Virus record (IMG/VR): IMGVR_UViG_3300020156_000033
Span: 1-56,850 of that record
Length of the DNA: 56,850 bases
Strand: one strand, 5' to 3'
Origin: a virus
Lineage: Duplodnaviria > Caudoviricetes
Shown: one piece after another, positions 1-56,850 of the stretch
How positions within the stretch are numbered: position 1 is the first letter of the stretch
Layout: each line of letters opens with the position of its first letter
The notes under the pieces: model-generated
What the model was told of the DNA's origin: nothing
What the model saw: the letters and a program-made list of their open reading frames with translations, nothing else
The model's database searches: none
Program-made: the position numbers and the translations under genes

Positions 1-129
1 CAGCGCCGCTGGGGCCGACGACGCCGCGCGCTACCGCGAGGGCGGGCGGGCGTCCTACTACGCCACCGTCCCCGGGACGCTGTTCGAAGACGGGATCACC
101 ACCTACCCCGCCAAGGCCTACGTGGTGGT
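1..129. repeat. Terminal overlap copy 1 (circular assembly)
   Basis: 4-129 identical to 56725-56850; 1-3 CAG vs 56722-56724 CAT; an ORF reads through the join. Confidence 0.95.
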
Positions 130-253
130 GGCGATCCGCCGGAGCGGCTACCACGAGGGCGACGTCATCGACGTCTACCGCAACGGCGCCGATCAGCCGG
201 ACGGCCGCTACACCGTCGGCCCGCGCGGTGGGCTGACCTGGGAGAAGTACTAG
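1..253 (+). CDS. 3' part of hypothetical protein starting at 56441 (about 177 aa across the circular join)
   Basis: Frame from ATG 56441 stays open through the overlap to TAG 251-253; GC-rich third positions. Confidence 0.8.
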   Translation, partial: SAAGADDAARYREGGRASYYATVPGTLFEDGITTYPAKAYVVVAIRRSGYHEGDVIDVYRNGADQPDGRYTVGPRGGLTWEKY

Positions 254-304
254 GACGAAACGCCCTTCGGGGCGTCCGCAGGTAAGGCCTGCGCTGACGA
301 GTCC
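253..304 (+). ncRNA. Hammerhead ribozyme, type II (HH1)
   Basis: GGAC-GAAA-CGCCC(UUCG)GGGCG-UC-CGCAGG(UAAGG)CCUGCG-CUGACGA-GUCC: full core, three Watson-Crick stems, GUC cleavage triplet 274-276. Confidence 0.93.
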
Positions 305-322
305 GCAGACACGGGAGGGACC

Positions 323-649
323 ATGGATAAGTACGTGATCACGGCAGACGACATCATCGGTGCCAGCCAGGACGCGGGGAGCTTCTTCTTCTCCCCCAGC
401 ACCGTGAGGTTCTGGGGCACGCGCGTCATGAGCCAGGTGTTCGGGGTGCCCGGCGGCGCGGTGTTCGTGACGTCGGAGAACCCCCGCAAGGAGCGGGGAG
501 AGCGCGCCTACACCGTGCGGCTGTTCACCTCTGAGGGGGCCAAGATCCGCACGCTGGGACCGCAGTACGGGCACCGTACCCGCGAGCAGGCGCTGCGCGC
601 CGCCGCCGAGTACGCCCGGATGATCCGCGAGGGTGAGGACGTCGCCTGA
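323..649 (+). CDS. Hypothetical phage protein
   Basis: RBS GGGAGG, ATG, coding-type codon bias. Confidence 0.8.
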   Translation: MDKYVITADDIIGASQDAGSFFFSPSTVRFWGTRVMSQVFGVPGGAVFVTSENPRKERGERAYTVRLFTSEGAKIRTLGPQYGHRTREQALRAAAEYARMIREGEDVA

Positions 650-651
650 CC

Positions 652-852
652 ATGGACATGATCACGGCCGAGAACCTGGGTGCGGGCGACCGCATCCGCA
701 CGCGCAAGGGCTCCGGCACCGTGGAGCAGGTCATCCACACCGAGTCCGGCGTCACCGTGTTCACCCGCGAGGGGTGGACGCAGGGCTTCACCTACGGGCA
801 GCGGGTGGACGGCTTCGCCCGCCCGCGCCCCTCCGCCGAACGCGACTTCTAG
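652..852 (+). CDS. Small hypothetical protein
   Basis: Tight packing, codon bias. Confidence 0.7.
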   Translation: MDMITAENLGAGDRIRTRKGSGTVEQVIHTESGVTVFTREGWTQGFTYGQRVDGFARPRPSAERDF

Positions 853-868
853 AAGGGCAGGACCACCC

Positions 869-1228
869 ATGGATTCCAGGACTCCCCGCATCGAGACCGT
901 ATTCGACACCATCGAGTGGCGCCGGGGCGACCTGGCGTACTACTTCCCCGCGTTCTCCGGTCCCGTCCCGTGTCGCGTGATGGGGCGCATCGGGCACCGC
1001 GCCGTTCTGGTGCGGATCACCGCATCGCGGCCCGGCTACAGCAGGAGCGAATACTGCACGGCGGGGCTGAGCGCCGACGGCGTTTCGGGCGAACTGTACG
1101 CACGCAACGCGGTGCACACCGACCGGGGCCGCTACTACGCGGACAACCACCGCCACGACCTGTCCGGACTGCCGGAGTACGTCCGCTTCGGACCCGGCTT
1201 CCACGAGCGCATGACCACCAACTACTGA
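869..1228 (+). CDS. Hypothetical protein
   Basis: ATG 869 after GCAGGA; codon bias. Confidence 0.7.
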   Translation: MDSRTPRIETVFDTIEWRRGDLAYYFPAFSGPVPCRVMGRIGHRAVLVRITASRPGYSRSEYCTAGLSADGVSGELYARNAVHTDRGRYYADNHRHDLSGLPEYVRFGPGFHERMTTNY

Positions 1229-1244
1229 CAGGGGAGCACCACCC

Positions 1245-1568
1245 ATGGCCACCAACAACGAACTCCTGCGCGAAGCGGCCAAGATCACCGGGGCCCTGCG
1301 CAGCCTGGGGATGGTCGATCAGGACACCGAGGTCGGGATCGATTTCGGGTCTTCGACGCAGGGTGTCAGCTACCGCGCGGTCTACGTGCGCACCGGCCTC
1401 GGTGAGGACGGGGCCCGGCACCACCGGGAGTCGTCTGCCACCCCGGAGTGGGTCGCGGGATACAACGGGCGGATCGGGCGGACGCGGGGAGAGGCCCTGC
1501 ACACCCTGGAGACGGCGCGTGCGGCCCTGTGCGCCGCCTCCCGCGCCAGGACCCTGACCGACTCCTAG
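1245..1568 (+). CDS. Hypothetical protein
   Basis: RBS GGGGAG, codon bias. Confidence 0.75.
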   Translation: MATNNELLREAAKITGALRSLGMVDQDTEVGIDFGSSTQGVSYRAVYVRTGLGEDGARHHRESSATPEWVAGYNGRIGRTRGEALHTLETARAALCAASRARTLTDS

Positions 1569-1572
1569 CACA

Positions 1573-1645
1573 CGTCGAAACGCCGGTACAGCGCCGCCCG
1601 GGTGGTGTGCTGGCGTCTGCGGGTCGTTCCCGCACTGATGAGACG
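1573..1645 (+). ncRNA. Hammerhead ribozyme, type II (HH2)
   Basis: CGUC-GAAA-stem III 1581-1590/1606-1615-UC-UGCGGG(UCGUU)CCCGCA-CUGAUGA-GACG; GUC triplet 1615-1617. Confidence 0.93.
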
Positions 1646-1672
1646 ACGCAACCGGAGAAAGAGGTAGGGCAG

Positions 1673-2308
1673 ATGGCATACCCGGACTACACCACCCACT
1701 GCGACGGGACGTTCCTGATCTTCGACACCGCCAAGCACAACGGCCGGGACGTCGACCCGGCGGAGGTCCGCGAGCACGTCGAGGGCTGCGCCACGTGCGC
1801 GGCGGCGGGGGTGGACCCCGATGACGCGGAGTTCGACGCCCGGACCTACAACGGGGACGTCGACGTCCCCTCCGACGACGAGTGCGCGTGCCGACTGGCC
1901 GGTGCGGCGGTGGCGGACCGCGTCCTCGCGGGTGCGGAGGTGCTGAAGCAGGTCTACGGCGCCGACTTCTACACCCGCATCGACACGGACAGGCTGGACG
2001 TCCAGAGCCTCTGCGACTGCGTCCTGGTGCAGCTGGGGAAGGGCCGCTCCGTGTTCGGCATGGACTCCGGCTCCCTTGTCGGCCTGGTGTCCTTCACCGA
2101 GATGGCGGAAGAGATCAAGTGCGCCGCCGTCGATGGGGTGTTCGGCTACGACACCGCCGACGGCAAGGTTGAGACGTGCTGCATGGGCTTCGACGGCGGG
2201 CGCGCAAGCGAAACGGAGTACGACGCCTACAGCGCCGACTGCGCGGAGCTGACGGCGGAGTGGAAGAAGCTGATCACCGACTGGCGCCGGTGGTCCGAAC
2301 TGGTCTGA
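1673..2308 (+). CDS. Hypothetical acidic, Cys-rich protein
   Basis: RBS GAGGTAGGGC then ATG 1673; upstream ORF extension overlaps the ribozyme and was rejected. Confidence 0.75.
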   Translation: MAYPDYTTHCDGTFLIFDTAKHNGRDVDPAEVREHVEGCATCAAAGVDPDDAEFDARTYNGDVDVPSDDECACRLAGAAVADRVLAGAEVLKQVYGADFYTRIDTDRLDVQSLCDCVLVQLGKGRSVFGMDSGSLVGLVSFTEMAEEIKCAAVDGVFGYDTADGKVETCCMGFDGGRASETEYDAYSADCAELTAEWKKLITDWRRWSELV

Positions 2309-2324
2309 GCCGGAAGCGCAGTCC

Positions 2325-2366
2325 GAGCACACCCCCTGCCCCGGAGCATCCGCAGGGGGTGTGCTC
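2325..2366 (+). terminator. Intergenic hairpin (terminator or processing site)
   Basis: Perfect 15-bp inverted repeat GAGCACACCCCCTGC/GCAGGGGGTGTGCTC, no U tail. Confidence 0.55.
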
Positions 2367-2417
2367 CACTGCGCCGCCGGGCGCATAACCACGACGACGG
2401 GCAAGGGAGAGGTGGGC

Positions 2418-2873
2418 ATGCGAGGCGATGTGAACGACCGGATCATAGAGCACGTCGAGCACCGGATGGACAGCCTGCGGCAATGCGGGACGATCGGGGA
2501 GGTCGCCGAGTTCCTGCGGAATGCGCGGATCACGGGGCTCCCCCGGCGGTCGGGTGTGTGCCCGGTCGCCATGTGGATTCGCACCGGTGCACCGGCACTG
2601 CTGGGACTGCACGACGTCGAGGTCGCACCGCCACTGGTCACCATCACGTACAACCTCCTGGAGGCGTGCGGGTGCGGATGCGGTAGCGACGGGGACGAAC
2701 CCGAGCCGTTGCTGCACGAGGTGCAGACGAACGCCGTCATCGACGCGTTCGTTGAGCGCTTCGATGACGACGACGACTTCGCGCCGCAGCTGCGCGCGGA
2801 CGACGACTACATCGGCACGCACGGGTTCTACACCGGGTTCGCCCGGCAGTGGCAGCGGGAGCGGGGACAGTGA
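2418..2873 (+). CDS. Hypothetical protein, paralogue of next gene
   Basis: RBS GGAGAGG; shares VAxF-R--I-G---CP-A motif with 2873-3424. Confidence 0.75.
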   Translation: MRGDVNDRIIEHVEHRMDSLRQCGTIGEVAEFLRNARITGLPRRSGVCPVAMWIRTGAPALLGLHDVEVAPPLVTITYNLLEACGCGCGSDGDEPEPLLHEVQTNAVIDAFVERFDDDDDFAPQLRADDDYIGTHGFYTGFARQWQRERGQ

Positions 2874-3424
2874 TGGATACGAAGACCAAGGAGCGCATCC
2901 GGTTGAAGGCGGACGCCGGGTTGGCGGTACTGCTGGCGTCGGAGGAAGTGCTGAAGGCACCGAGCCCCAGCCTGGGAGTGGCGAAGTTCTTCCGCGCCCG
3001 GGGGATCAGGGGTGAGCGCGACGACGCGCGGACGTGCCCGACCGCGCAGTACTTGCGGGAATGCGTCGAAGACGCGTACGGCATCAACCCCGTGGTGTTC
3101 AACGAGACGATCTCGTTCTGCCGGAACGAGGCGGTGGTCAAGGTCGTGTCCATGCCGACCCCCGCCGCCGTACGGGAGTTCGAGCGGGACATGGGCGCGG
3201 GTGTCTACCCGGACCTGGACACGTCGGTCCGCCGCGATCCCTTTGCGGAAGACAGCGACAACCACTACATCGTGGAACCGACGGAATCCCAAGGGCGGGA
3301 GTACACGGTGTGGCGGGTGAACTGCATCGGGCAGCGCTGGTTCATCGCCTCCTACACCGGTGCCGACACCGCCGTGCGGCTGTGCTCGGTGATGAACCAG
3401 TTCGCCCACACGGAAGTGGTCTAG
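2873..3424 (+). CDS. Hypothetical protein, paralogue of previous gene
   Basis: TGATG coupling; shared motifs. Confidence 0.75.
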   Translation: MDTKTKERIRLKADAGLAVLLASEEVLKAPSPSLGVAKFFRARGIRGERDDARTCPTAQYLRECVEDAYGINPVVFNETISFCRNEAVVKVVSMPTPAAVREFERDMGAGVYPDLDTSVRRDPFAEDSDNHYIVEPTESQGREYTVWRVNCIGQRWFIASYTGADTAVRLCSVMNQFAHTEVV

Positions 3425-3507
3425 ACCATTCGGTGATCTGAGAGCGCGCGGACCTGCGGGCCCGCGCGTTCGACTGCCCATCGAAGGCACGTGGACGGAG
3501 GAAGGGC

Positions 3508-3735
3508 ATGGCCAGTGAGTGGAAGGAACTGCGGCGCGAGGACGACGACCGCCGGTACCTGATCGAGCACAGCGGGACCCCGGAGCTGATCATCAGCGCG
3601 TGGTTCTCCTACGACGACGGGATGCGCACCGCTGCGTGGAACGAGCTGCGTCGGCGGCGGGAGCGCGGGGAGCTGGACGCTCCGCAGCTCAGCGAGCTTG
3701 CCGACATCGACAAGCACAACCTGGGAGAGGGATGA
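3508..3735 (+). CDS. Hypothetical protein
   Basis: RBS GGAGGAAGG, codon bias. Confidence 0.7.
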   Translation: MASEWKELRREDDDRRYLIEHSGTPELIISAWFSYDDGMRTAAWNELRRRRERGELDAPQLSELADIDKHNLGEG

Positions 3736-3737
3736 CG

Positions 3738-3923
3738 ATGCGTGAGGGAGTGGAGATGAGCGTGGGCAGACTGCTCGTGCTGGTGGTGGCGCTGGCCGCC
3801 TTCATCGGGATCGTGTTCGCCAGCGTGGCGGCGGAGGTCGCGGCCGGACCGGAGCCCATCGGCGCCGATGCGGAGGGGACGGTCTACATCGACCCGACCG
3901 ACCGCACCAGCGGAGGTGAGTAG
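3738..3923 (+). CDS. Small membrane protein
   Basis: Hydrophobic LLVLVVALAAFIGIVFASVAA; start uncertain (3732/3738/3756). Confidence 0.65.
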   Translation: MREGVEMSVGRLLVLVVALAAFIGIVFASVAAEVAAGPEPIGADAEGTVYIDPTDRTSGGE

Positions 3924-3925
3924 CT

Positions 3926-4498
3926 GTGCTCGAACTGCTGAAGATGGCCGTGGTCTACGCAGGCCCGTCCGCACTCCTGTGCGGCCTGATCTACTGGCTC
4001 ACCCGGCCCCCGACCCCTGCCACCGGTGATGGGGAGCCCGAGGTGTCCGGCGCACCCGGTGCGCAGACTCCGTCCATCGGCGTGGTCGGTGACCACGTCG
4101 GCGGCTACTACCTCGCCGACGCGGACGGCACCGCCAGGCACCAGGTCAGCCAGGCTGCCCATGCGGGAGACCTGGACCCCCGGGACCGCGCGCTGACTGA
4201 GATGCTGAAGGGTGCGCAGTTCGGCGACGGGGTGTCCATCACCCTGCCGAGCGGGACCGTGGTGGATGGATCGCAGATGCGCCAGCTCCAGCATCAGCGG
4301 ATATGCGAAGAAGCCATGGACCGCAGGGAACTCAGGGAGCAGATGCGGCTGGAGCACAAGGTCTGGAACGACGCGTTCAACAGAAAGATCCAGGCGCTGA
4401 TCAAGTCGGGTGCGAGCGGTGCCGACATCGCCGAGTTCAGCCAGACCGAGATGGCGAAGCGGAAGCAGTACGAGCGGGAACGACGCAACGGAGAGTGA
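3926..4498 (+). CDS. Membrane-anchored hypothetical protein
   Basis: RBS GGAGG; N-terminal TM segment, charged helical C-terminus. Confidence 0.7.
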   Translation: MLELLKMAVVYAGPSALLCGLIYWLTRPPTPATGDGEPEVSGAPGAQTPSIGVVGDHVGGYYLADADGTARHQVSQAAHAGDLDPRDRALTEMLKGAQFGDGVSITLPSGTVVDGSQMRQLQHQRICEEAMDRRELREQMRLEHKVWNDAFNRKIQALIKSGASGADIAEFSQTEMAKRKQYERERRNGE

Positions 4499-44835: not shown

Positions 44836-47301
44836 CTACAGCGGGCTGATGCGGTTCTCCATCTGGTCGGCCATCATCTCCTGGAGCGCCTGAAGCAGCT
44901 GCTCCGGACTGGCCTGTACCACGTCGCCGGGCTGGAGCCCCAGCGGCGGGCGGTCGGCGCAGGCGTAGACGAAGGCGTCGGCGAAGTCGGGCGAGGACCC
45001 CCCGGTGCGCTTGCGGATGTCGTCCTTGGACTCGATGTAGAGACGGTCGTTGGAGTACTTGAACCGCACGCCCTGAAGCTCCTCGTACAGCTGGTCGTGC
45101 ATGACGGCCTTCTGCACCCCGTTGAGCATGTACTGCCGCGTGCGGTCGTACCACAGTGCGCGGGCGTTGCCATAGCCCGCCACCGGGGTGCCGTCCTCCT
45201 CGGCGGCCCGCGCCGATCCGATCATCTCGATGACGGTCAGCCCCCGGTAGCGGGTCGGTTCGGCCGCGATCATGGCCATGGCCGCATCGACCACACCGGC
45301 GCCCAGGCCGACGGCGTCCACGCGGACCTCGACCTCCTCGTCGTCGTCGGTGCGCAGGTCGCAGGCGATGCCGAGCACACGCCGCGCGGAACTCGTGGTG
45401 TCCATGCCCTTCCAGGAGTCCTGCACCCAGGCGACCGACCCGCGCCGAGCACACACCGCCGTGGTGTCGTCGCCGTAGCGCGCGGGGTCCACGCCCAGGA
45501 ACAGCGGCCCCTCGCCCCGCTCGTCGGCCAGGTCGAAGCCGTTGGCCAGCACCTGCGCCCCGAACAGCGAGGACACCGCGTTGTCGGGGAAGTCCGCCAG
45601 CACCTTGGACTGGTAGCGGGGGTCGTCCTCGCCCCACGCCTTGCGGCGGTCCTCCACCCACTCCCGCTGCACGAGCACGTCGCGCAGCAGCGCGGGCACC
45701 TGCTCGTCGGTGAAGTTCGGGGTGTCGAACGCCGAGATGGTGATGCGGTTCCACAGGTCGGCCTGCGACTCCGACGTGCAGACCCTGCCGAACTCGGTGT
45801 CGGGGTCGTCGGGGTTGCCGATGGCCAGGATGCGGGCGTCGCCGGTGGTGGTGATCGCCTCGACCGCCGTCCACAGGGCGGGGGCCACGCCGCACGCCTC
45901 ATCGATCACGACGAGGACGTAGCGGCGGTGGATGCCCTGGAAGGCGTGGATGTTGTGGTCGGAGGGCTTGCGCCCGAACCCGATGATCTCGCCGTTGTCC
46001 AGCTTCCACTCGTCGGACTGGGTGACGTAGCCGACCAGCGGTGTGAAGCGCTCGTCGGACTCGGCGCGGGCGGAGGCCCGGCGGTGGTGCTTGCGGATCT
46101 CCTCCCACAGGATCTTGTTCACCTGGGCGTAGGTCGGCGCGGTGGAGACCACGATCGCCTCGCCGGGCGGGTGGGTGTCCAGCCACCAGGCCGAGGCCAC
46201 CGAGGCGATCATCGAGTTGTGCGTGGGCACCATGTCGGCGCCCGCGAGGTAGAGGTGGTTGTCCGAGGCCACCTGCACGCACTGCGTGGGCACCGACGGC
46301 ACCGGCCGCACCTCGCGGATGACCCGGCCGGTCAGGCGGCTGCGGCCGTTCTTGCCCCCGTTGCGCTTCTCCCAGCGCTCCAGGGCGTGCTCGGCCTCGG
46401 CCGGGAAGGGGTTGTCCACCGTGCGCAGCACCACCGCGTAGTCGCCGGTCGGCTCCCCCATGCGGTACAGCGGAACCGGACCGCCCGGCACCACCCGGTG
46501 CCCCAGGGTGCGGGCCAGCTCCGCCGCGCGCTCGGCGGCGGCCAGCTTGGGCAGCGCGAGCAGCACCGCGCCGTCGGCGCGGACCGAGCCCCAGGCAGCA
46601 CACACCCCGGTGAAGGCCGCCTCGCGCTGCTTGAGGGCGGCGCGCATCAGGTGCGAGGGCAGCGCGGCCTGGACGCCCATCTCGTAGGGGTCCTGGACGA
46701 AGCCGGTCTCCGGGCCCTGCAGCGGCCGCGCCAGCGGCACCGCGTGGTTGTAGTCGCCCCGGTGGTTCTTCAGGCTGGCCGCGATCTCGGCCGTGGTGCG
46801 GACCTCGGCCGCGTCCCAGTGGTCGCGCCAGTCCACCTCGGTGCCCGCGCGGTGGGCGGCGGTGCGGATGCGCTGCCGGGTGCGGGCGTCGATGGTGGCC
46901 CACTCGTGGTTCCACCCGCACCGCACCGCCGAGCCGTCATCGAAGACGACCTCGGCCACGTCGTGGCGGAACACCTGGGACTTGGCCACCACCAGCACCG
47001 GGCCGCCGTGCTCGCCCAGCAGGTGGTCCCCCACCGACACCCGCCCCATCGACGTCCAGCCGGTGGGGGTCGGCAGCAGGGTGTCCAGCGGCAGGTCCTT
47101 GCCCGAGCCGTGGCAGGACTTCACCGCCGTGCGCTTGTGGTCGCGCACGCTCTGAAGCACCTCGACCTGCTTGGACCAGGCGTGGACCTGGAGCCGGTCG
47201 CGCGCCCAGCCCCCCGGGTCCATGCGGTACCCGCTGGACTTGGCCTCGGCGGCGAGGCGCCGCAGCGCCCCCTCCACCACCTCGGCGTCGAAGCCGCCCA
47301 T
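44836..47301 (-). CDS. terL: Terminase large subunit, intein-containing
   Basis: KSCHGSGK|S Walker A, VVIDEA, IGNP, LGVDPARYGDD, SPDFADA. Confidence 0.93.
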   Translation of the reverse strand: MGGFDAEVVEGALRRLAAEAKSSGYRMDPGGWARDRLQVHAWSKQVEVLQSVRDHKRTAVKSCHGSGKDLPLDTLLPTPTGWTSMGRVSVGDHLLGEHGGPVLVVAKSQVFRHDVAEVVFDDGSAVRCGWNHEWATIDARTRQRIRTAAHRAGTEVDWRDHWDAAEVRTTAEIAASLKNHRGDYNHAVPLARPLQGPETGFVQDPYEMGVQAALPSHLMRAALKQREAAFTGVCAAWGSVRADGAVLLALPKLAAAERAAELARTLGHRVVPGGPVPLYRMGEPTGDYAVVLRTVDNPFPAEAEHALERWEKRNGGKNGRSRLTGRVIREVRPVPSVPTQCVQVASDNHLYLAGADMVPTHNSMIASVASAWWLDTHPPGEAIVVSTAPTYAQVNKILWEEIRKHHRRASARAESDERFTPLVGYVTQSDEWKLDNGEIIGFGRKPSDHNIHAFQGIHRRYVLVVIDEACGVAPALWTAVEAITTTGDARILAIGNPDDPDTEFGRVCTSESQADLWNRITISAFDTPNFTDEQVPALLRDVLVQREWVEDRRKAWGEDDPRYQSKVLADFPDNAVSSLFGAQVLANGFDLADERGEGPLFLGVDPARYGDDTTAVCARRGSVAWVQDSWKGMDTTSSARRVLGIACDLRTDDDEEVEVRVDAVGLGAGVVDAAMAMIAAEPTRYRGLTVIEMIGSARAAEEDGTPVAGYGNARALWYDRTRQYMLNGVQKAVMHDQLYEELQGVRFKYSNDRLYIESKDDIRKRTGGSSPDFADAFVYACADRPPLGLQPGDVVQASPEQLLQALQEMMADQMENRISPL
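46216..47097 (-). mobile_element. Class 3 intein (294 aa) with degenerate LAGLIDADG remnant
   Basis: DLPLDTLLPTPTGW...HEW...QCVQV...VPTHN|S; WCT triplet; removal restores GSGKS. Confidence 0.88.
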
Positions 47302-47304
47302 GTC

Positions 47305-47511
47305 CTACCCCGCCTTCTTCTTCAGGCGGTCGCGGACGCTCCGCACCACCGCCTCGTCGGCCTGCACCATGCGCAGCCAGTCGGCCAGCTCCCCGGCGCT
47401 ACCGGCGTTGCTGGCCAGCACCAGCACCATCTTCTCCATCTCGCGGCGGGCCTCCTCCTCCGAAGACCTCGGCACCGTGACCTGGCTGCCGCGCCCCATG
47501 AAGTCAACCAT
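47305..47511 (-). CDS. Small hypothetical protein
   Basis: Tight packing, RBS GGAG. Confidence 0.65.
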   Translation of the reverse strand: MVDFMGRGSQVTVPRSSEEEARREMEKMVLVLASNAGSAGELADWLRMVQADEAVVRSVRDRLKKKAG

Positions 47512-47722
47512 CCTGCTCCTCCCGGAACACCGCGCCGTCGGCGCGCCCCTGCTCCCGGGCGGGCATCAGCCCCTTCCGGCTGGACCCCAGGGTCTCGACC
47601 CGGATGTAGGTGAGCCACATCCCGTCGGTGTTCTCCACCAGCACCCGCCGCAGCTCGTCCTCGCTCGGCGGTTCTCCCGGCCCCGTGTGGTAGTACCGCA
47701 CCACCAGCTCGTACGCGCCCAT
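47504..47722 (-). CDS. Small hypothetical protein
   Basis: Tight packing, codon bias. Confidence 0.65.
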   Translation of the reverse strand: MGAYELVVRYYHTGPGEPPSEDELRRVLVENTDGMWLTYIRVETLGSSRKGLMPAREQGRADGAVFREEQDG

Positions 47723-48331
47723 CTACTTCGCCCCCTTCGACGTCCGCGTGCTGTTGGCCGTCATCGCCTCGGTCGCCACCTCGGCGAAGCGCGCCGCCCA
47801 GCCGTCGGCGATCTCCCGGCGGATGCGCACCGCCTCTTCGTCACCGCGCGGCAGACGGGCCAGGCGGTCCTCCACGAAGGACAGCATCTGGTCCCGCACG
47901 CCCGCGAGCATGGTGTGGACCATGTCCTTCTGCACCCGGGTCAGCTCCACCTGCTCGTCGCGCAGCCGGTCCTTCTTCAGTTCCATCAGCTCGGTGATGG
48001 TGGTCAGGGTGTCGATCAGGTTCTTGGTCTGCTTGCCCTCGGTGATCAGGTCGCCCGACATCACCTGGGGCCACAGGGCGTTGACGATCGACTCCAGGCG
48101 CACGAGCTGGAGCATGCGCATCTCCAACGCCGAGGACCGGTTGTAGTTGCTGAGCAGGTAGTCGTTGACGACCATCGCCGCATACGCGGGGTCGATGCCC
48201 GTCTCCTTCTCGATCTGGTACCAGTTCAGGCCCCGCGCCCGCAGGCCGACCAGCATGTCCACCAGCTCACGCTCGCGCATCCGCCGGTGGGCCTGCTCCT
48301 GGGGGTCCTCGTAGACCTCGACCTCACTCAC
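47723..48331 (-). CDS. Terminase small subunit candidate
   Basis: N-terminal HTH LRARGLNWYQI, RLE...LWP...GD; near terL. Confidence 0.65.
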   Translation of the reverse strand: MSEVEVYEDPQEQAHRRMRERELVDMLVGLRARGLNWYQIEKETGIDPAYAAMVVNDYLLSNYNRSSALEMRMLQLVRLESIVNALWPQVMSGDLITEGKQTKNLIDTLTTITELMELKKDRLRDEQVELTRVQKDMVHTMLAGVRDQMLSFVEDRLARLPRGDEEAVRIRREIADGWAARFAEVATEAMTANSTRTSKGAK

Positions 48332-48599
48332 CCGTGTCCACCTCCTCGTACTCCTCGACCATGCCGTCCTCGCTCTCCACGATCCATCCGGCCAGTTCGC
48401 GGGAGTCGTGCCGGATGGCCAGGTGGTCGGTCAGGGCCCCGGTGCCCCCGGACTCCTCCTCGTGGCCGGGGGAGTGCCACCCGCACACCGGGCACCGCGC
48501 CTCGTAGCGCTGGCGGGTGCGCGCGGTGCGGGTGGCCCAGCGGTGCTCGTCCAGCGGTGACGCCTTCTCGGGCAGCCGCACCGCGTACCCCCGCCTCAC
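48324..48599 (-). CDS. Small zinc-binding protein
   Basis: CPVCGW...DHLAIRH. Confidence 0.65.
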   Translation of the reverse strand: MRRGYAVRLPEKASPLDEHRWATRTARTRQRYEARCPVCGWHSPGHEEESGGTGALTDHLAIRHDSRELAGWIVESEDGMVEEYEEVDTGE

Positions 48600-48847
48600 G
48601 CCTCGCCCCTGCGGGTTTCGGCGGACGTGTCGATCATGTAAACGATGTGCTTGGAAACCTTCTTGACGATGTGCTCACCGTTCCTGGACAGCAGCAGGTG
48701 GATGAGCGGGTCGGAGTCCCTGTCGATGTCGGCCACCCGGTACCACAACTTCTCGGAATCCCCCGGAACACTGAGCGCGATCCGGTCGCCGACCCACAGG
48801 CTCTGCGCGAACACGAAGTCGGTCGCGGTACCAGCGGTCTCGTCCAT
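48596..48847 (-). CDS. Hypothetical protein
   Basis: Coupled ORF. Confidence 0.65.
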   Translation of the reverse strand: MDETAGTATDFVFAQSLWVGDRIALSVPGDSEKLWYRVADIDRDSDPLIHLLLSRNGEHIVKKVSKHIVYMIDTSAETRRGEA

Positions 48848-48848
48848 C

Positions 48849-48977
48849 TCAGAACCCCATCTCGTCGGTGTTGTGCTCGGTGAGCACGTGGATGTCGTAG
48901 GCGGTGGCGGCCCCCGGGCCGGAGCAGGTCCAGGTGCATCCGGGGTAGCCGCACCGCACGTCGGGCTGGGCGCTCAC
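48849..48977 (-). CDS. 42-aa C2H2-type microprotein
   Basis: GTGA coupling; CGYPGC...HVLTEH. Confidence 0.55.
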   Translation of the reverse strand: MSAQPDVRCGYPGCTWTCSGPGAATAYDIHVLTEHNTDEMGF

Positions 48978-49378
48978 GTGCCGCCCCCGATGCCGAGTTC
49001 GCGCTTACAGAGGGGGTGCGGCTTACGCACCGGCTCGGGCCCCAGGGGCAGCGGGCCACGCGTGTCCGCGCACTCCAGATCGGAGGCGCGGCACTCCATG
49101 CTCCGGCCCGGCCAGCCCGACTCTCCCGGCGCGTCGATCACCGACATCAGCGGCCGGACGGTCACCGAATGGCGGTCGGACTGCGACGTCGGGCCGGGGG
49201 TGAAGAACTCCCGGAGGAGCGGGACCCGCTGCACGAGCCCGCGCTCCCACTTGAGCACTTCCGGGTGCCACCAGGCGGCGTCATCCGCCCGGCGCAATTC
49301 CCGGTCTACCCGCTCCAGCGCGCTCCGCGCGGCCTCCATGACGGCGCCGCCCAGCTTGTCGTTCGGCCCCTTGGTCAC
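48974..49378 (-). CDS. Hypothetical protein
   Basis: GTGA coupling at 49378. Confidence 0.6.
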   Translation of the reverse strand: MTKGPNDKLGGAVMEAARSALERVDRELRRADDAAWWHPEVLKWERGLVQRVPLLREFFTPGPTSQSDRHSVTVRPLMSVIDAPGESGWPGRSMECRASDLECADTRGPLPLGPEPVRKPHPLCKRELGIGGGT

Positions 49379-49707
49379 TGCGGCCTCCCGATCCCCAGCT
49401 CGCGCTCCAGTTCGGCGATCCGCTTCTCCTGCTCGCGGATGCGCCTGTCCTTCTCCCGGGGGTCGTGCTCGACCGCCGTCTTCTCCACCGCGCCGCCGAA
49501 GGCGCGGACGGGCAGCACCACGGGCCAGAAGAAGAGGGTCGCCGTGGTGTCCTCCTTCACGCGCGCCAGGACGTACTTCTCCTTGGTGTACTCCTTGCGC
49601 GCGGCCGCCCACGCACGGGGCAGGTCGCGCCTGGCCAGGTACCAGCCGATGGAGAAGTAGGCCGCCAGGTAGACGAGCACACCCACCAGGACGTGGACCA
49701 CGGTCAC
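49375..49707 (-). CDS. Membrane protein with coiled-coil tail
   Basis: TM segments; RIAELERELGI. Confidence 0.7.
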   Translation of the reverse strand: MTVVHVLVGVLVYLAAYFSIGWYLARRDLPRAWAAARKEYTKEKYVLARVKEDTTATLFFWPVVLPVRAFGGAVEKTAVEHDPREKDRRIREQEKRIAELERELGIGRPQ

Positions 49708-49802
49708 CGGTCCCACCGCCCCAGCAGCGCGGAGACGAAGACGCCGATGAAGACGCCGCAGGCCAGCGTGCTGAGCACAAGGCCGACGAGTTCGGTGCTC
49801 AT
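49704..49802 (-). CDS. 32-aa membrane peptide
   Basis: ATGA/GTGA coupling; LVGLVLSTLACGVFIGVFVSALL. Confidence 0.55.
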   Translation of the reverse strand: MSTELVGLVLSTLACGVFIGVFVSALLGRWDR

Positions 49803-50167
49803 CCGCCGTCCCCCTCCTTCTGCACGGCGATCCGGAGCACGTCGGCGAGCGGCACGGTCACCGACGCGGGCGTCAGCACGATGTCACTGCTGGCGGCGTA
49901 AGCGTCGATGTCGACGCCGTCGACCACGGCCGCCCGGATGGGGTTGTGGATGGTGCCCACCTCGTACACCTCGATGTCGTGGTGCCCGGCCAGAGCGGGC
50001 AGCAGGTAGCGGCGGACCAGGGCGGCGAGCGGGTACCCCACGGCGGCGGCATCGACGCCGTGGGCGTCGCAGTAGTCGAACCACGCATCAGGGGCGTCGC
50101 CGTCGTTGAAGCCCCACTTCGACAGCAGGCCGCTGGAATGCAGGGTGACGGCTTCGTCGCTGCTCAC
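49799..50167 (-). CDS. Hypothetical phage protein
   Basis: RBS GGAGGAG; LLSKWGFNDGD...TIHNPIRA. Confidence 0.7.
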   Translation of the reverse strand: MSSDEAVTLHSSGLLSKWGFNDGDAPDAWFDYCDAHGVDAAAVGYPLAALVRRYLLPALAGHHDIEVYEVGTIHNPIRAAVVDGVDIDAYAASSDIVLTPASVTVPLADVLRIAVQKEGDGG

Positions 50168-50976
50168 TGCTCCTCCTCCGGCCCCGCGATGGCGATCTCC
50201 TCGATGCGCGCGGCGGCCGCGTAGTGGCCGTACTCGCACAGCAGGTCCGCCGCACGGCGGCGGAACTCCCGCACCGCCTTCTCCCGGATCGCGTGGCGGT
50301 CCCGCGCGAAGTGGTCCTCCCAGTAGTCCTTGACGGCCTTGTAGGCGGCCAGCACACGCGCCTCGTGCCGCAGGGAGTTCGCGGTCAGGCGCTCGGGATT
50401 GGGGACCGAGGACGGGTCGGCGGCGTGGATGGCGGTCCACAGGTCCGCCCACAGCTTGCCGTCGGTGAAGTCATCGGTGACCTCGTGGGCCCCGCCGTCG
50501 CGGAACATCAGCTCGGGGGCGTTCTCTTCGAGAACGCAGGACCCGACCACCCACGCCCCGCCACCGGCATCGACCCAGTCGCGCAGCGGTACGGTCTGAT
50601 CGGCCACGCGTACGTAGCGCTCCTCGGACGGGGTTTCCGTGCCGGGGCAGACGAACCCGTTCCAGCCCCGCAGGTAGCCGTGCCGGGGATGCGGCTCATC
50701 GCGCCCGCAGGGCGCGGTGCGCTGCTCCGCGTCCTCTTCGGAGAGGGAGACACCGCTGATCCACTGGTCGAGCGTAACCCTGCGCCCGCCGCCGAGGTCC
50801 ATCATGACCGGCTCACGCTCCTCCTGCGGCTCGGGGTAGTCGGCGCGGTAAGCGGCGAGCACCGCGTGGACGTGCGCGGCGTCGACCAGGTCGCGCGCTT
50901 CACTGGCGCTGTAGTCGGGGAGGTCACTTCCTTCGAGCAGGCGCATCGCGGCCTGGTAGTGCTCCTCGGCGTTCAC
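50164..50976 (-). CDS. Mosaic hypothetical protein
   Basis: GTGA coupling; EHY-AA-RLL...A-VHA-LA N-terminal module. Confidence 0.7.
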   Translation of the reverse strand: MNAEEHYQAAMRLLEGSDLPDYSASEARDLVDAAHVHAVLAAYRADYPEPQEEREPVMMDLGGGRRVTLDQWISGVSLSEEDAEQRTAPCGRDEPHPRHGYLRGWNGFVCPGTETPSEERYVRVADQTVPLRDWVDAGGGAWVVGSCVLEENAPELMFRDGGAHEVTDDFTDGKLWADLWTAIHAADPSSVPNPERLTANSLRHEARVLAAYKAVKDYWEDHFARDRHAIREKAVREFRRRAADLLCEYGHYAAAARIEEIAIAGPEEEQ

Positions 50977-53648: not shown

Positions 53649-53682
53649 GGAGTCTCCTCGGTGGGGGTGTGTAACGTTTCCT

Positions 53683-53691
53683 ATCTTACCA
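53683..53691 (-). promoter_or_regulatory. Extended -10 promoter for the minus-strand arm
   Basis: TGG-TAAGAT about 35 nt upstream of ATG 53648. Confidence 0.55.
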
Positions 53692-53899
53692 CACGCGCGC
53701 GCGTGGGCGGGAAATTTTTCGGTTTCCCGTGGAACCGGAGGCCGATCACGTGGAGGCAGAGGTCACGTTCGCGGGGGTGCTACCACCCATCCTCCCAGGC
53801 ATAACTCTTCGTATTGGTTTTGTCACCCCACCCCCCGTGGTTTTCAGCGCCGAGCCAGCGCGGCCCCCGCGTGCCGACTAGCACACGACCGCTGGCTTG

Positions 53900-54800
53900 G
53901 CCTCACTCTTCGGCTACATCCTTGTCACCGCATAGCTACATCCCTGCCATGCACGCACCCCTACCTACCCATGGGTAACTATGCCTATATGTACCAACCT
54001 ATGTACCGAATGTAGGGAACGGTAGCGCTAGAGCGAACCACCCCATACCCACCCGTACTCCACGTATCGGACATCAGACATCTGATAGCTCTGCACGCAG
54101 CGTGACTGTGTGACCTACGTCACTAGACCACTGAACCTCACCCTTACTTCAGCTCAGGCTAGCCTTCCCTCAGTAGCTATGAGTAGTTGTCGTAAGCGAA
54201 GAGTTAGATCGATGGCCATCGATGGGCCAGTAGAGCGAAGTCTCGACGTGTTTCACCCCCCTGTCTCCCTCCCCGAAAAAGATCATTTACCCTCTCTGTA
54301 ACCAACAACTACAATCAGTTACTACTCATCGACACACCCCCCTTACATAGCTCAAGACTTCGCTCTCCCGGCCCACAACGCTCTGACCAGGCAAAACAGT
54401 AGTTACCAATCCGTGATGTACCCACTGCCAACATCTAGACCACTGCCTCAACCACGCCTGACTACCACCCATTCATCCCACTTCATCCCCTTTGTCCGTT
54501 CCGTCCCCTTCGCTCTCCCGGCCCATATACCATCTGACCTGCAACAACACCCCTCCCTCCCCCTCCCTATCTCATAGCTACTCCCCAGTAACCACCCTCT
54601 AGACATCCCATCACCCCACCCATCCTCACTCTGTCCGTATTCAACTACACCCCATAGAAACCGGACATCAGTACCCATACCTGCCCATATCCCCGAACCC
54701 CTTCCCGATCATCGTCACCGTGCGTGTGCTTCCTCCCTCCCAGCCCACGTGCCCACCCCCTCTGACCTGCACAGTTGACAAAGAACCGGCCACTCATGCA
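53900..54800. other. Low-GC, strand-skewed non-coding region; candidate replication origin
   Basis: G-poor plus strand, AGAGCGAA repeats in both orientations, 16-bp palindrome, 18-bp direct repeat. Confidence 0.5.
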
Positions 54801-55179
54801 GAGTTTGGCCTAGCAACACCGCAGCACCCGCCCCGCAACCAGGGGCGGCGCACCACCCCCGGTGCCTCTCAGTGGGCATGAACCGGGGTCGGCACGGCCA
54901 CAACTCCACAGCGGCGCACAGCACGAAGAACATGAAGCCTTACTCAGCGCTTCGCGGATCTGGGCAGATCAGCACCAGGAAGTTCCGGCGAACGGCGACG
55001 ATCCGGCCCCTCAGGGGCCAACCGCCCGCCCCCTGGTGGAAGTACCGCCCCCGCACCGCCGACAGGCACACGTGCAGCACACGCGCCGCTATGAGGATGC
55101 AGGCACGGCCTCTCAACTCCACAGCGCGCACCATGAGGACGACACCGGCGCTAGGCGCCCCGGATGGATGTGTAGCTTT

Positions 55180-56040
55180 CGGCGGGTATCCGCCGTCTGA
55201 TTCTCCGCAGACTCGTTCCGAACTCTGCCAGCGCAGGTTGTTTCGTCACGGCCGCAGGCCGTGCCGCGAGCCTCCGCGTTAGGGCGCAGACGAACCCGGT
55301 GAGATCCCATGGCGTGCGTGTACCCACCGAACGAGCGCGACCCCAGCGCGACCGGCGGTGCGAGTACCTGCAACCGGGTGTGGAACCCCGGTATTGACAA
55401 CGACATGATCGAACTGTGATCGGACACGGCACCGTCCGGTCCCCGTAGGTCCCCTGCGAGCGGATACCCGCTGAGGTCAGGGCAATTACGGGGGTCACCG
55501 GGTAGCGGCGCTCCCCCGAACGAGCGAGATCCGTACATAGTGGTAACGCGAAAAGCCTTACACCGAACGGCATGAGGTGCGCTCGCTGCTGCCGATACTG
55601 AGTATCCGCAGGTCGAGCGCCCCCGTAAGACCGTGGAACGCCCGAGCACGACGGGGCGCGGCCGACCGGGCGGGGTGTGCTGGTGGCGGAGTCGATACCG
55701 ACCACCGGCGCCCACCCCGCGCCTGCGCCGCACCTGCGCTGCGCACGACGGGAAAGGGCGTTCTGGGTGAAGGCATGGAGTCCGAGGGCGAATGGGGCGC
55801 TTCCCTCGCACACCCCTTGCGGGTGCGCGGCACGGGTACGGGTGACCGGGTCACCAGCGTCCGAAGCCCCGGGCGGACACGTGTTCCAGGTGCGCAGACG
55901 CGCGGCACGGCCGGAATGAGACCTTCCGGCCACGACCGCGCGACGGCTCGCTTGGCGGGTCTGATGCGACCGCCGCACCTGGCACGTGCCCTGCCCAGTA
56001 CCACATGTCCAAGGTGTGGTGCGGGTTGGGTGCGTGGAAG
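55180..56040 (+). ncRNA. Candidate large structured RNA
   Basis: No credible ORF; long-range helices 55229-55238/55732-55741 and 55182-55193/55460-55471; many hairpins; strand inferred. Confidence 0.55.
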
Positions 56041-56440: not shown

Positions 56441-56850
56441 ATGGCTGTCTACGTATTCCCCGGTGAGGGGCGCTTGCGCGTCGAGCGGTACGGCCAGGAC
56501 GGCGGACCTGAGCGCCACGTCTACCGCCTCGCCTTCATGGCGGAGGACCCCGGGCGCTTCGGCGGGCGCGTGCTGCGGAGCCGGATCACGGTCCCCTGGC
56601 AGCCCGACCCGCGCACACATGAGAACCGCGTCGTCGCCGACGCGCTCGCGGCGGTCGAACACGGGATCTCCGGTGCCGACGACGACCCCACGGGGACGGT
56701 CCTGGGCCTGTACGCCGACGACATCGCCGCTGGGGCCGACGACGCCGCGCGCTACCGCGAGGGCGGGCGGGCGTCCTACTACGCCACCGTCCCCGGGACG
56801 CTGTTCGAAGACGGGATCACCACCTACCCCGCCAAGGCCTACGTGGTGGT
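56441..56850 (+). CDS. 5' part of hypothetical protein continuing across the join to 253
   Basis: RBS GGGAGG, ATG 56441, open to end of window. Confidence 0.8.
   Translation, partial: MAVYVFPGEGRLRVERYGQDGGPERHVYRLAFMAEDPGRFGGRVLRSRITVPWQPDPRTHENRVVADALAAVEHGISGADDDPTGTVLGLYADDIAAGADDAARYREGGRASYYATVPGTLFEDGITTYPAKAYVV
56722..56850. repeat. Terminal overlap copy 2
   Basis: Matches 1-129 with one mismatch. Confidence 0.95.

Follow-up and report, generated by a model that had tools for sequence, protein, structure and literature searches.

What kind of RNA lies in the narrow gap between a stop codon and the next ribosome-binding site (RBS) near the left end of the virus record IMGVR_UViG_3300020156_000033, and what would it do to the messenger that carries it? 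The DNA analysed here, referred to as the window, is the whole stretch of 56,850 nucleotides (nt) of that IMG/VR record, which belongs to the Caudoviricetes (Duplodnaviria), and the element in question, HH1, occupies positions 253-304 of its + strand. The original prediction, made from the letters of the DNA, was that HH1 is a complete type II hammerhead ribozyme. This identity is now backed by the sequence, by the topology of the fold, and by covariation among relatives, and we regard it as very probable that HH1 functions as a type II hammerhead in the sense strand of a rightward operon, in which small genes are followed by replication genes.

All of the defining elements of HH1 can be read directly in window positions 241-330, and the coordinates first assigned to them are right to the base. 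Stem II pairs GGAC at 253-256 (positions 11.4-11.1 of the hammerhead scheme) with GUCC at 301-304 (10.1-10.4). The GAAA at 257-260 supplies G12, A13, A14, and A15.1. The stem III hairpin, at 260-275, joins CGCCC (261-265) and GGGCG (270-274) around a UUCG tetraloop (266-269), and the pair A260-U275 adds a sixth base pair (bp) to the five described earlier. The GUC cleavage triplet covers 274-276 and is followed by the stem I hairpin at 277-293, which consists of CGCAGG (277-282), the loop UAAGG (283-287), whose first base U283 is conserved, and CCUGCG (288-293). The catalytic core CUGACGA, i.e., C3 U4 G5 A6 C7 G8 A9, occupies 294-300. When the family numbering is applied to the sequence, C276 becomes C17 and the scissile bond is predicted at 276/277. 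In the same numbering we take C256 to be C11.1, 257-259 to be G12-A14, A260-U275 to be A15.1-U16.1, C277-G293 to be N1.1-N2.1, 294-300 to be C3-A9, and G301 to be G10.1; G257, as G12, is presumably the general base, and G299 presumably fills the catalytic role of G8.

The arrangement of these parts is that of the type II permutation, with stems I (6-7 bp) and III (6 bp) capped and the 4-bp stem II open. HH1 contains the CUGANGA core, the GAAA with its A15.1-U16.1 pair, and an N-U-H triplet in which H17 is not G, the features by which the family is recognized, and the G10.1-C11.1 pair that closes stem II corresponds to G301-C256. When RNAfold is applied to the segment 245-312, the secondary structure of lowest free energy is that of the hammerhead (-26.9 kcal/mol, z -2.1). 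As had been proposed, HH1 begins within the TAG stop codon of the upstream gene (251-253, + strand) and ends 18 nt before the ATG at 323, in the sense strand of both flanking genes. Stem II opens with G253, the last base of the stop codon, whose middle base, A252, is the conserved A that lies 5' of stem II. A putative Shine-Dalgarno-like sequence of the downstream gene, GGGAGGGA, is found at 313-320 (+ strand).

Short helices and a core of seven nucleotides are simple, and a chance match in GC-rich DNA therefore had to be considered. A three-stem descriptor found exactly two sites in the window, HH1 and a second hammerhead, HH2 (1573-1645), both on the + strand and both in sense intergenic gaps directly past stop codons. 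With much laxer thresholds (stems of 4, 3, and 2 bp) the descriptor matched once each in 9 of 300 first-order Markov random windows and twice in none, whereas the stems actually present in the window measure 6-7, 6-11, and 4 bp against descriptor thresholds of 3, 4, and 2. A covariance model, R1, built from 32 hammerheads of viral contigs with the window sequences excluded, gave 70.1 bits for HH1 and 54.7 bits for HH2 with filters off, compared with 12.1 bits for the next match in the window. The pattern used to fetch the seed was partly modelled on HH1 (stem III) and on the Rfam consensus, and the core and stem III share of the 70 bits is present by construction, since that pattern fixed them; it imposed neither the 6-bp stem I and the 5-nt loop I nor the stem II of 4 bp and the flanking A. 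Together with the near-identical architecture found in the Streptomyces phages Wentworth and phiRKBJ001 (see below), these results effectively refute a chance origin. A simpler candidate, the single CTGANGA...GAAA match of the window, was rejected, as 58 of 100 shuffles did as well; it consists of the HH2 core followed by an unrelated GAAA.

The relatives of HH1 in viral contigs were collected with the pattern CGAAACGCC...GGCGTC...CTGANGA, in which nothing but the core and four stem III pairs is specified. At least 118 stretches matched, and several contigs carried two to four copies. Stem I is absent from the pattern, yet at least five contiguous stem I pairs were present in 118 of the 134 parsed matches (among the matches listed). 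The seed of R1 was limited to 32 distinct members in which the stem I hairpin spans 17-18 nt and stem II has 4 bp or more. Their pairing of 100% reflects this selection, and the constancy of stem III is built in by the pattern; double changes were seen in 9 of the 15 pairs, comprising all six pairs of stem I and three of the four pairs of stem II. The C-G pair closing stem II is the same in 32 of 32. A second alignment, of 16 distinct hammerheads from the window, Wentworth, and Janus, has pairing in 97.4% of its cells and double changes at 11 of 15 pairs, compared with 32-41% pairing in slid controls, and was fitted to the model, which favours pairing.

Covariation among orthologous loci was read from a partial difference table of a single relative. 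Window 1-2400 was matched to three DNA runs and to no RNA run; of the three, X1 may be the source of the window, and X2 gave no depth in the bins 321-400 and 481-560, which is uninformative. DNA run X3 contains a relative that is about 90% identical (33 differing letters over 290 aligned bases), and within HH1 it differs by C264>G and G271>C, as far as can be told from the 22 of 33 differences listed. These two positions are the partners of one pair, and the exchange is thus a compensatory change in stem III.

The placement of HH1 is also that of its relatives. The stop codon of a long upstream open reading frame (ORF) starts 3-7 nt before C11.1 in 82 of 124 type II hammerheads, with a mode of 5 as in HH1, and 9 of the 124 have no upstream stop within 40 nt. 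An RBS-like start follows within 80 nt in 88 of the 124, at a median distance of 28 nt. The order stop codon, ribozyme, RBS is the norm of the family. A further element recurs on the 3' side of some of these hammerheads: the sequence (G/A)UCAG, which is complementary to the core CUGA(C/U), occurs within 16 nt past the core in 16 of 119 distinct viral-contig hammerheads, for example 3' of stem II in loci L014, L024, L072, L112, L008, and L061. Its first base tracks N7 of the core (11 cases of C7 with G and 5 of U7 with A, against 3 that do not match), and a hairpin formed with it would sequester the catalytic core. Neither HH1 nor HH2 has this element.

Close relatives of the locus as a whole were not recovered by the other searches. 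Megablast of window 1-4000 and blastn of 1-2400 gave no match among deposited phages; the protein encoded downstream of HH1 as a query gave no related locus in viral or genome contigs, and the 211-amino-acid protein encoded downstream of HH2 gave none in viral or metagenome contigs. A pattern specific for HH1 had no match in metagenome contigs.

The ribozyme itself has relatives in cultured phages. Blastn of window 249-312 against deposited phages returned 22 records, all of them Streptomyces phages, and for most of these matches the record has no feature annotated at the site. Over complete records, R1 identifies 6 hammerheads in Wentworth (MH019216.1) and 8 in Janus, all on the gene strand, and 5, 4, and 4 in the fetched stretches of Issmi, Tefunt, and phiRKBJ001 (MT936332.1), respectively. 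The closest named relatives of HH1 are the copy between genes 76 and 75 of Wentworth and the copy between genes 78 and 77 of phiRKBJ001, with R1 scores of 61.8 and 60.9 bits. Both share with HH1 the stem II GGAC/GUCC with an A before it, the core CUGACGA, a loop I beginning with UAAGG, a 6-bp stem I, and a site between a stop codon and the next gene. The Wentworth copy differs from HH1 in stem I, by one double change from A-U to C-G and one change from G-C to G-U, and in the loop of stem III, which is GUGA instead of UUCG; the flanking genes in both phages are unrelated to those of the window.

None of the hammerheads is annotated in the five fetched Streptomyces phage records (Wentworth, Janus, Issmi, Tefunt, and phiRKBJ001). 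A 5.5-kb stretch of Janus (locus L122, NC_054660.1, record positions 45161-50632) contains 10 matches at E <= 0.01, where the whole record gives 8 at the same E limit; each of its hammerheads sits in a gap between small same-strand genes, and none carries an annotation though six pass the Rfam threshold. In Tefunt (NC_054665.1), a 47.5-bit hammerhead at L132:1565-1623 lies inside the annotated coding sequence gp79 (1552-1782 of the locus) and another, at L132:2615-2674, overlaps the start of gp75; gp79 and the gp75 start are probably an over-called ORF and an over-called start. Wentworth (L121:2472-2538) and phiRKBJ001 (L133:3200-3266) have in common a hammerhead whose core reads CCGAUGA, so that C replaces U4. 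Either this copy is inactive, or the core tolerates the exchange and both phages have kept it.

The original prediction had named a search with the Rfam hammerhead models as a check, and its outcome was divided. In a permissive scan, RF02276 (Hammerhead_II, clan CL00010) aligns with HH1 over its full length (model positions 1-66), with E-values of 3.9e-5 on 271 nt and 0.0081 on the whole window, but the score of 32.7 bits stays below the gathering score of 37, and a scan of the whole window at the gathering threshold gave no match. According to the alignment, the missing bits are due to 4 nt inserted in stem II and to the shortness of loop I; the gathering score is a curated cut-off, not a structural feature. 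HH2 scores 24.0 bits at 1573-1652 in the same scan, which found no ribozyme family other than the hammerhead in the whole window. The remaining permissive rows (Prion_pknot, mir-7558, RT-13, BjrC68, and SNORD23) lie far below their cut-offs and were treated as chance. The two Wentworth-type copies resembling HH1 also fail to reach the gathering score, at 25.7 and 23.9 bits, whereas 6 of the 8 listed copies of the Janus type, which bear a pseudoknot, do reach it. HH1 thus belongs to a subclass that annotation at the Rfam threshold misses.

HH1 and the type II hammerheads described by RF02276 and by the consulted sections of Perreault et al. (2011; PMC3088659) are alike in core, cleavage triplet, permutation, and the stem III consensus ACGCCC/GGGCGU, and also in their location, in several copies, between same-strand genes of phage origin. 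In the RF02276 consensus, however, stem II is annotated with 2 bp, loop I is longer, and the 3' tail pairs with this loop in a pseudoknot; in HH1, stem II has 4 bp and loop I 5 nt, and the tail cannot pair with the loop. No 4-bp pairing between loop I and the 3' tail is possible in HH1, because the tail at 305-322 has no U with which A284 and A285 of the loop UAAGG could pair. A pseudoknot is present in the majority of type II members and does not define them.

Several of these points weigh against an active ribozyme. In addition to the failure to reach the Rfam cut-off, the partial dependence of R1 on HH1 itself, the fitting of the 16-sequence alignment, and the incomplete difference table of the X3 relative, the missing pseudoknot has to be counted, as its loss in one pseudoknot-type construct lowered activity 20- to >100-fold (PMC3088659, in the part consulted). 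When 161 nt of context are folded, stems I and III are kept and the 4-bp stem II is displaced by other pairing, which is what one expects of a short helix that relies on tertiary contacts that the folding program does not model. HH1 could then be catalytically slow or dead, and its hairpins would serve only as stabilizers of the mRNA or as translational insulators between cistrons. The core variant CCGAUGA in the two Streptomyces phages can be cited for such a view. However, all invariant core positions of HH1 are intact, and hairpins alone would need neither CUGANGA nor GAAA, which are invariant in 32 of 32 seed sequences, though fixed there by the search pattern. HH1 also possesses a tertiary signature of fast natural hammerheads, and we therefore consider a slow or dead HH1 to be quite improbable.

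This signature is an A directly 5' of stem II together with a U that opens loop I. It is present in 55 of the 56 distinct members of the subclass (all loci and the window), and in the single exception (locus L070) the U and the A are swapped. In the seed the A and the U are each found in 31 of 32 sequences. The stop codon alone does not explain the A, as the base before it is T in only 15 of the 32 sequences. Dufour et al. (2009; PMC2632901) report that the U opening loop 1 and the 3'-terminal A of loop 2 make a reverse Hoogsteen pair on which fast cleavage depends, and that a double mutant in which U was changed to A and A to U showed partial rescue. The type I and type III hammerheads of CChMVd, sTRSV, and Schistosoma, as far as covered by the excerpts, have a loop 1 that begins with U, of the type U...G (e.g., UGAAGUG), and the 3' A of loop 2, for which the equivalents in HH1 are U283 and A252. 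HH1, in contrast, has no closed 'loop 2', since its stem II is open, and A252 lies within the stop codon of the upstream gene. The permutation of type II puts the base directly before stem II, A252 in HH1, where other hammerheads have the 3' A of loop 2; its conservation suggests that the two are equivalent. HH1 probably uses the classical contact between loop 1 and loop 2, with loop 2 opened and U283 paired with A252, in place of a pseudoknot.

If A252 takes part in the active fold, a terminating ribosome would occupy a nucleotide that this fold needs. From this we tentatively propose, as a scheme that is possible and no better than that, an 'open loop 2' subclass of type II hammerheads, missed by the Rfam threshold, in which the contact A would often be the middle base of the upstream stop codon (UAG or UAA), competition between ribosome and ribozyme would couple cleavage to translation of the upstream gene, and the copies would double as direct repeats for the insertion and deletion of single-gene cassettes.

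The last part of this proposal comes from the X3 relative. Its contig matches window 15-304, continues with 347 other letters, and then matches 268-1526, i.e., after a step back of 37 nt. The relative thus has a full copy of HH1, then an insert about as long as a gene, then a repeat of HH1 that covers its 3' two-thirds or more, and this suggests gain or loss of cassettes at ribozyme copies. It is conceivable that the hammerhead copies are primarily genomic features, either as direct repeats of about 50 nt at gene borders that serve as recombination sites for single-gene cassettes, or as pairs that excise an RNA, bounded by a 5'-OH and a cyclic phosphate, which is then ligated into a circle. 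The insert in X3 and the hammerheads in many successive intergenic gaps of Janus and Wentworth (8 and 6 copies, respectively, over the whole records) speak for such a role; PMC3088659 raises spliced or circular products as a possibility, but the consulted sections report that neither was detected. A role in recombination alone would require neither the strictly conserved core nor the compensatory stem changes, both of which indicate that selection acts on the RNA. A genomic role is also compatible with RNA processing. As the primary function of HH1, we consider a genomic role unlikely, and a ribozyme that processes the transcript of the operon remains our preferred reading.

How would such a ribozyme act on the operon? 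After transcription, stems III and I would fold as hairpins, and the short stem II would close the three-way junction. The 2'-OH of C276 would then attack the 276/277 phosphodiester by the standard mechanism, with G257 and G299 in the positions of G12 and G8. The upstream mRNA would keep its TAG and a 23-nt tail that ends in the stem III hairpin with a 2',3'-cyclic phosphate, whereas the downstream mRNA, with a 5'-OH, would open with the stem I hairpin and reach the RBS of the next gene after 36 nt. Cuts at both HH1 and HH2 would release the four-gene block 323-1568 as an mRNA of its own. The cleaved pieces may differ in stability and translation, and 5'-OH ends and terminal hairpins may both slow decay of the RNase E/J type. 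Differential stability or translation of cleaved pieces is also the function suggested in the literature, where it is called unproven (PMC3088659 and PMC6765202, in the parts consulted).

The genes around HH1 fit this picture of a rightward operon. The upstream frame, 2-253, ends at the TAG 251-253 and has GC contents of 0.68, 0.54, and 0.95 at the three codon positions, whereas the other two open frames lack such a pattern; the high GC content at the third codon position (GC3) identifies it as the real frame. The 5' part of this gene, the second of the + arm, is found at 56441-56850 (+ strand), where it crosses the end of the record, which overlaps the record start. The gene downstream of HH1, at 323-649 (+ strand), encodes a protein of 108 amino acids of unknown function that matches DUF7447 (Pfam, E 8.9e-18) and phrog_4655 (PHROG, E 3.1e-13), with a GC3 of 0.92. 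It is the first of four small genes between HH1 and HH2; the GC3 frame plot places the other three at 652-852, 869-1228, and 1245-1568 (all + strand), and Pfam and PHROG scans of 652-849 and 1245-1565 gave no match.

HH2 repeats the layout of HH1. It is located on the + strand between a TAG at 1566-1568 and an ATG at 1673, with the same order of stop codon, ribozyme, RBS, and start. Its stem II is CGUC/GACG, its stem III has about 11 contiguous pairs, its core is CUGAUGA, and its stem I, UGCGGG/CCCGCA, is closed by the loop UCGUU; from its GUC triplet, cleavage is predicted after C1617. The gene that follows, at 1673-2308 (+ strand), encodes the 211-amino-acid protein, which has no family match.

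On a larger scale, the window has a GC content of 68.5% and two gene arms. The + arm starts with small genes without known function and continues with an SNF2-type helicase, an exonuclease, a primase, and a DNA polymerase, while the genes for terminase, portal, protease, tail, and endolysin lie in the - arm. With portals of Arthrobacter phages the portal shares 38% identity, and this similarity, together with the GC content, makes an actinobacterial host likely. The last 126 bases of the record, 56725-56850, are identical to 4-129, so that the unit measures 56,721 bp, and in DNA run X1 a contig of 56,751 nt passes across the joined ends. The record thus appears to be a whole genome, circular or circularly permuted, although it had been estimated at 50%.

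Where the transcript begins and ends can be suggested from the same context. The original prediction spoke of an early polycistronic mRNA, and what points to one is the gene order and the lack of a terminator-like site on the + strand in 1-3000. A scan of that region for promoter and terminator consensus sequences found none, and such scans weigh little in an actinobacterial phage; one weak promoter-like site lies at 54286-54315 (+ strand). Between the divergent gene arms, at about 53650-56000, there are more than 2 kb with almost no ORF that has the coding GC3 signature. This may be a regulatory or origin region in which the hammerhead-bearing transcript starts. Transcription of the + strand at HH1, like the self-cleavage that was predicted for it, is what gene order and motif would lead one to expect.

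As an element, HH1 is not of a new kind, and its arrangement was published for prophages in 2011. The consulted sections of that work (PMC3088659) describe type II hammerheads as abundant in bacteria and in phage DNA, with several prophage copies that flank single genes or short gene blocks, and report that multi-hammerhead prophage transcripts self-cleaved in vitro and, in one case, also in Escherichia coli. Against any confident statement of purpose stands a 2019 review (PMC6765202), which in the part consulted calls the purpose of bacterial and phage hammerheads undetermined. Our literature search, mostly of open-access papers, found none on hammerheads in actinobacterial phages, and Dataset S1 and Figures S4-S5 of PMC3088659 may already list the subclass or the phages. 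What goes beyond the textbook is the 'open loop 2' subclass without a pseudoknot, the fact that the fetched Streptomyces phage records leave it unannotated, and the hint of gain or loss of cassettes.

These points bear on how actinobacterial phages may organize their transcripts. A type II hammerhead that lacks the pseudoknot could still be fast at cellular Mg2+, and the conserved A/U pair would explain this in a simple way that can be put to the test. The two ribozymes of the window predict that the early transcript would be cut into at least three mRNAs, one of which would carry only the four small genes, whose function is unknown. More generally, hammerheads can punctuate many successive gene borders in the operons of actinobacterial phages, and what purpose they serve in phages can readily be asked with cultured phages, among them Wentworth and Janus, and their Streptomyces hosts.

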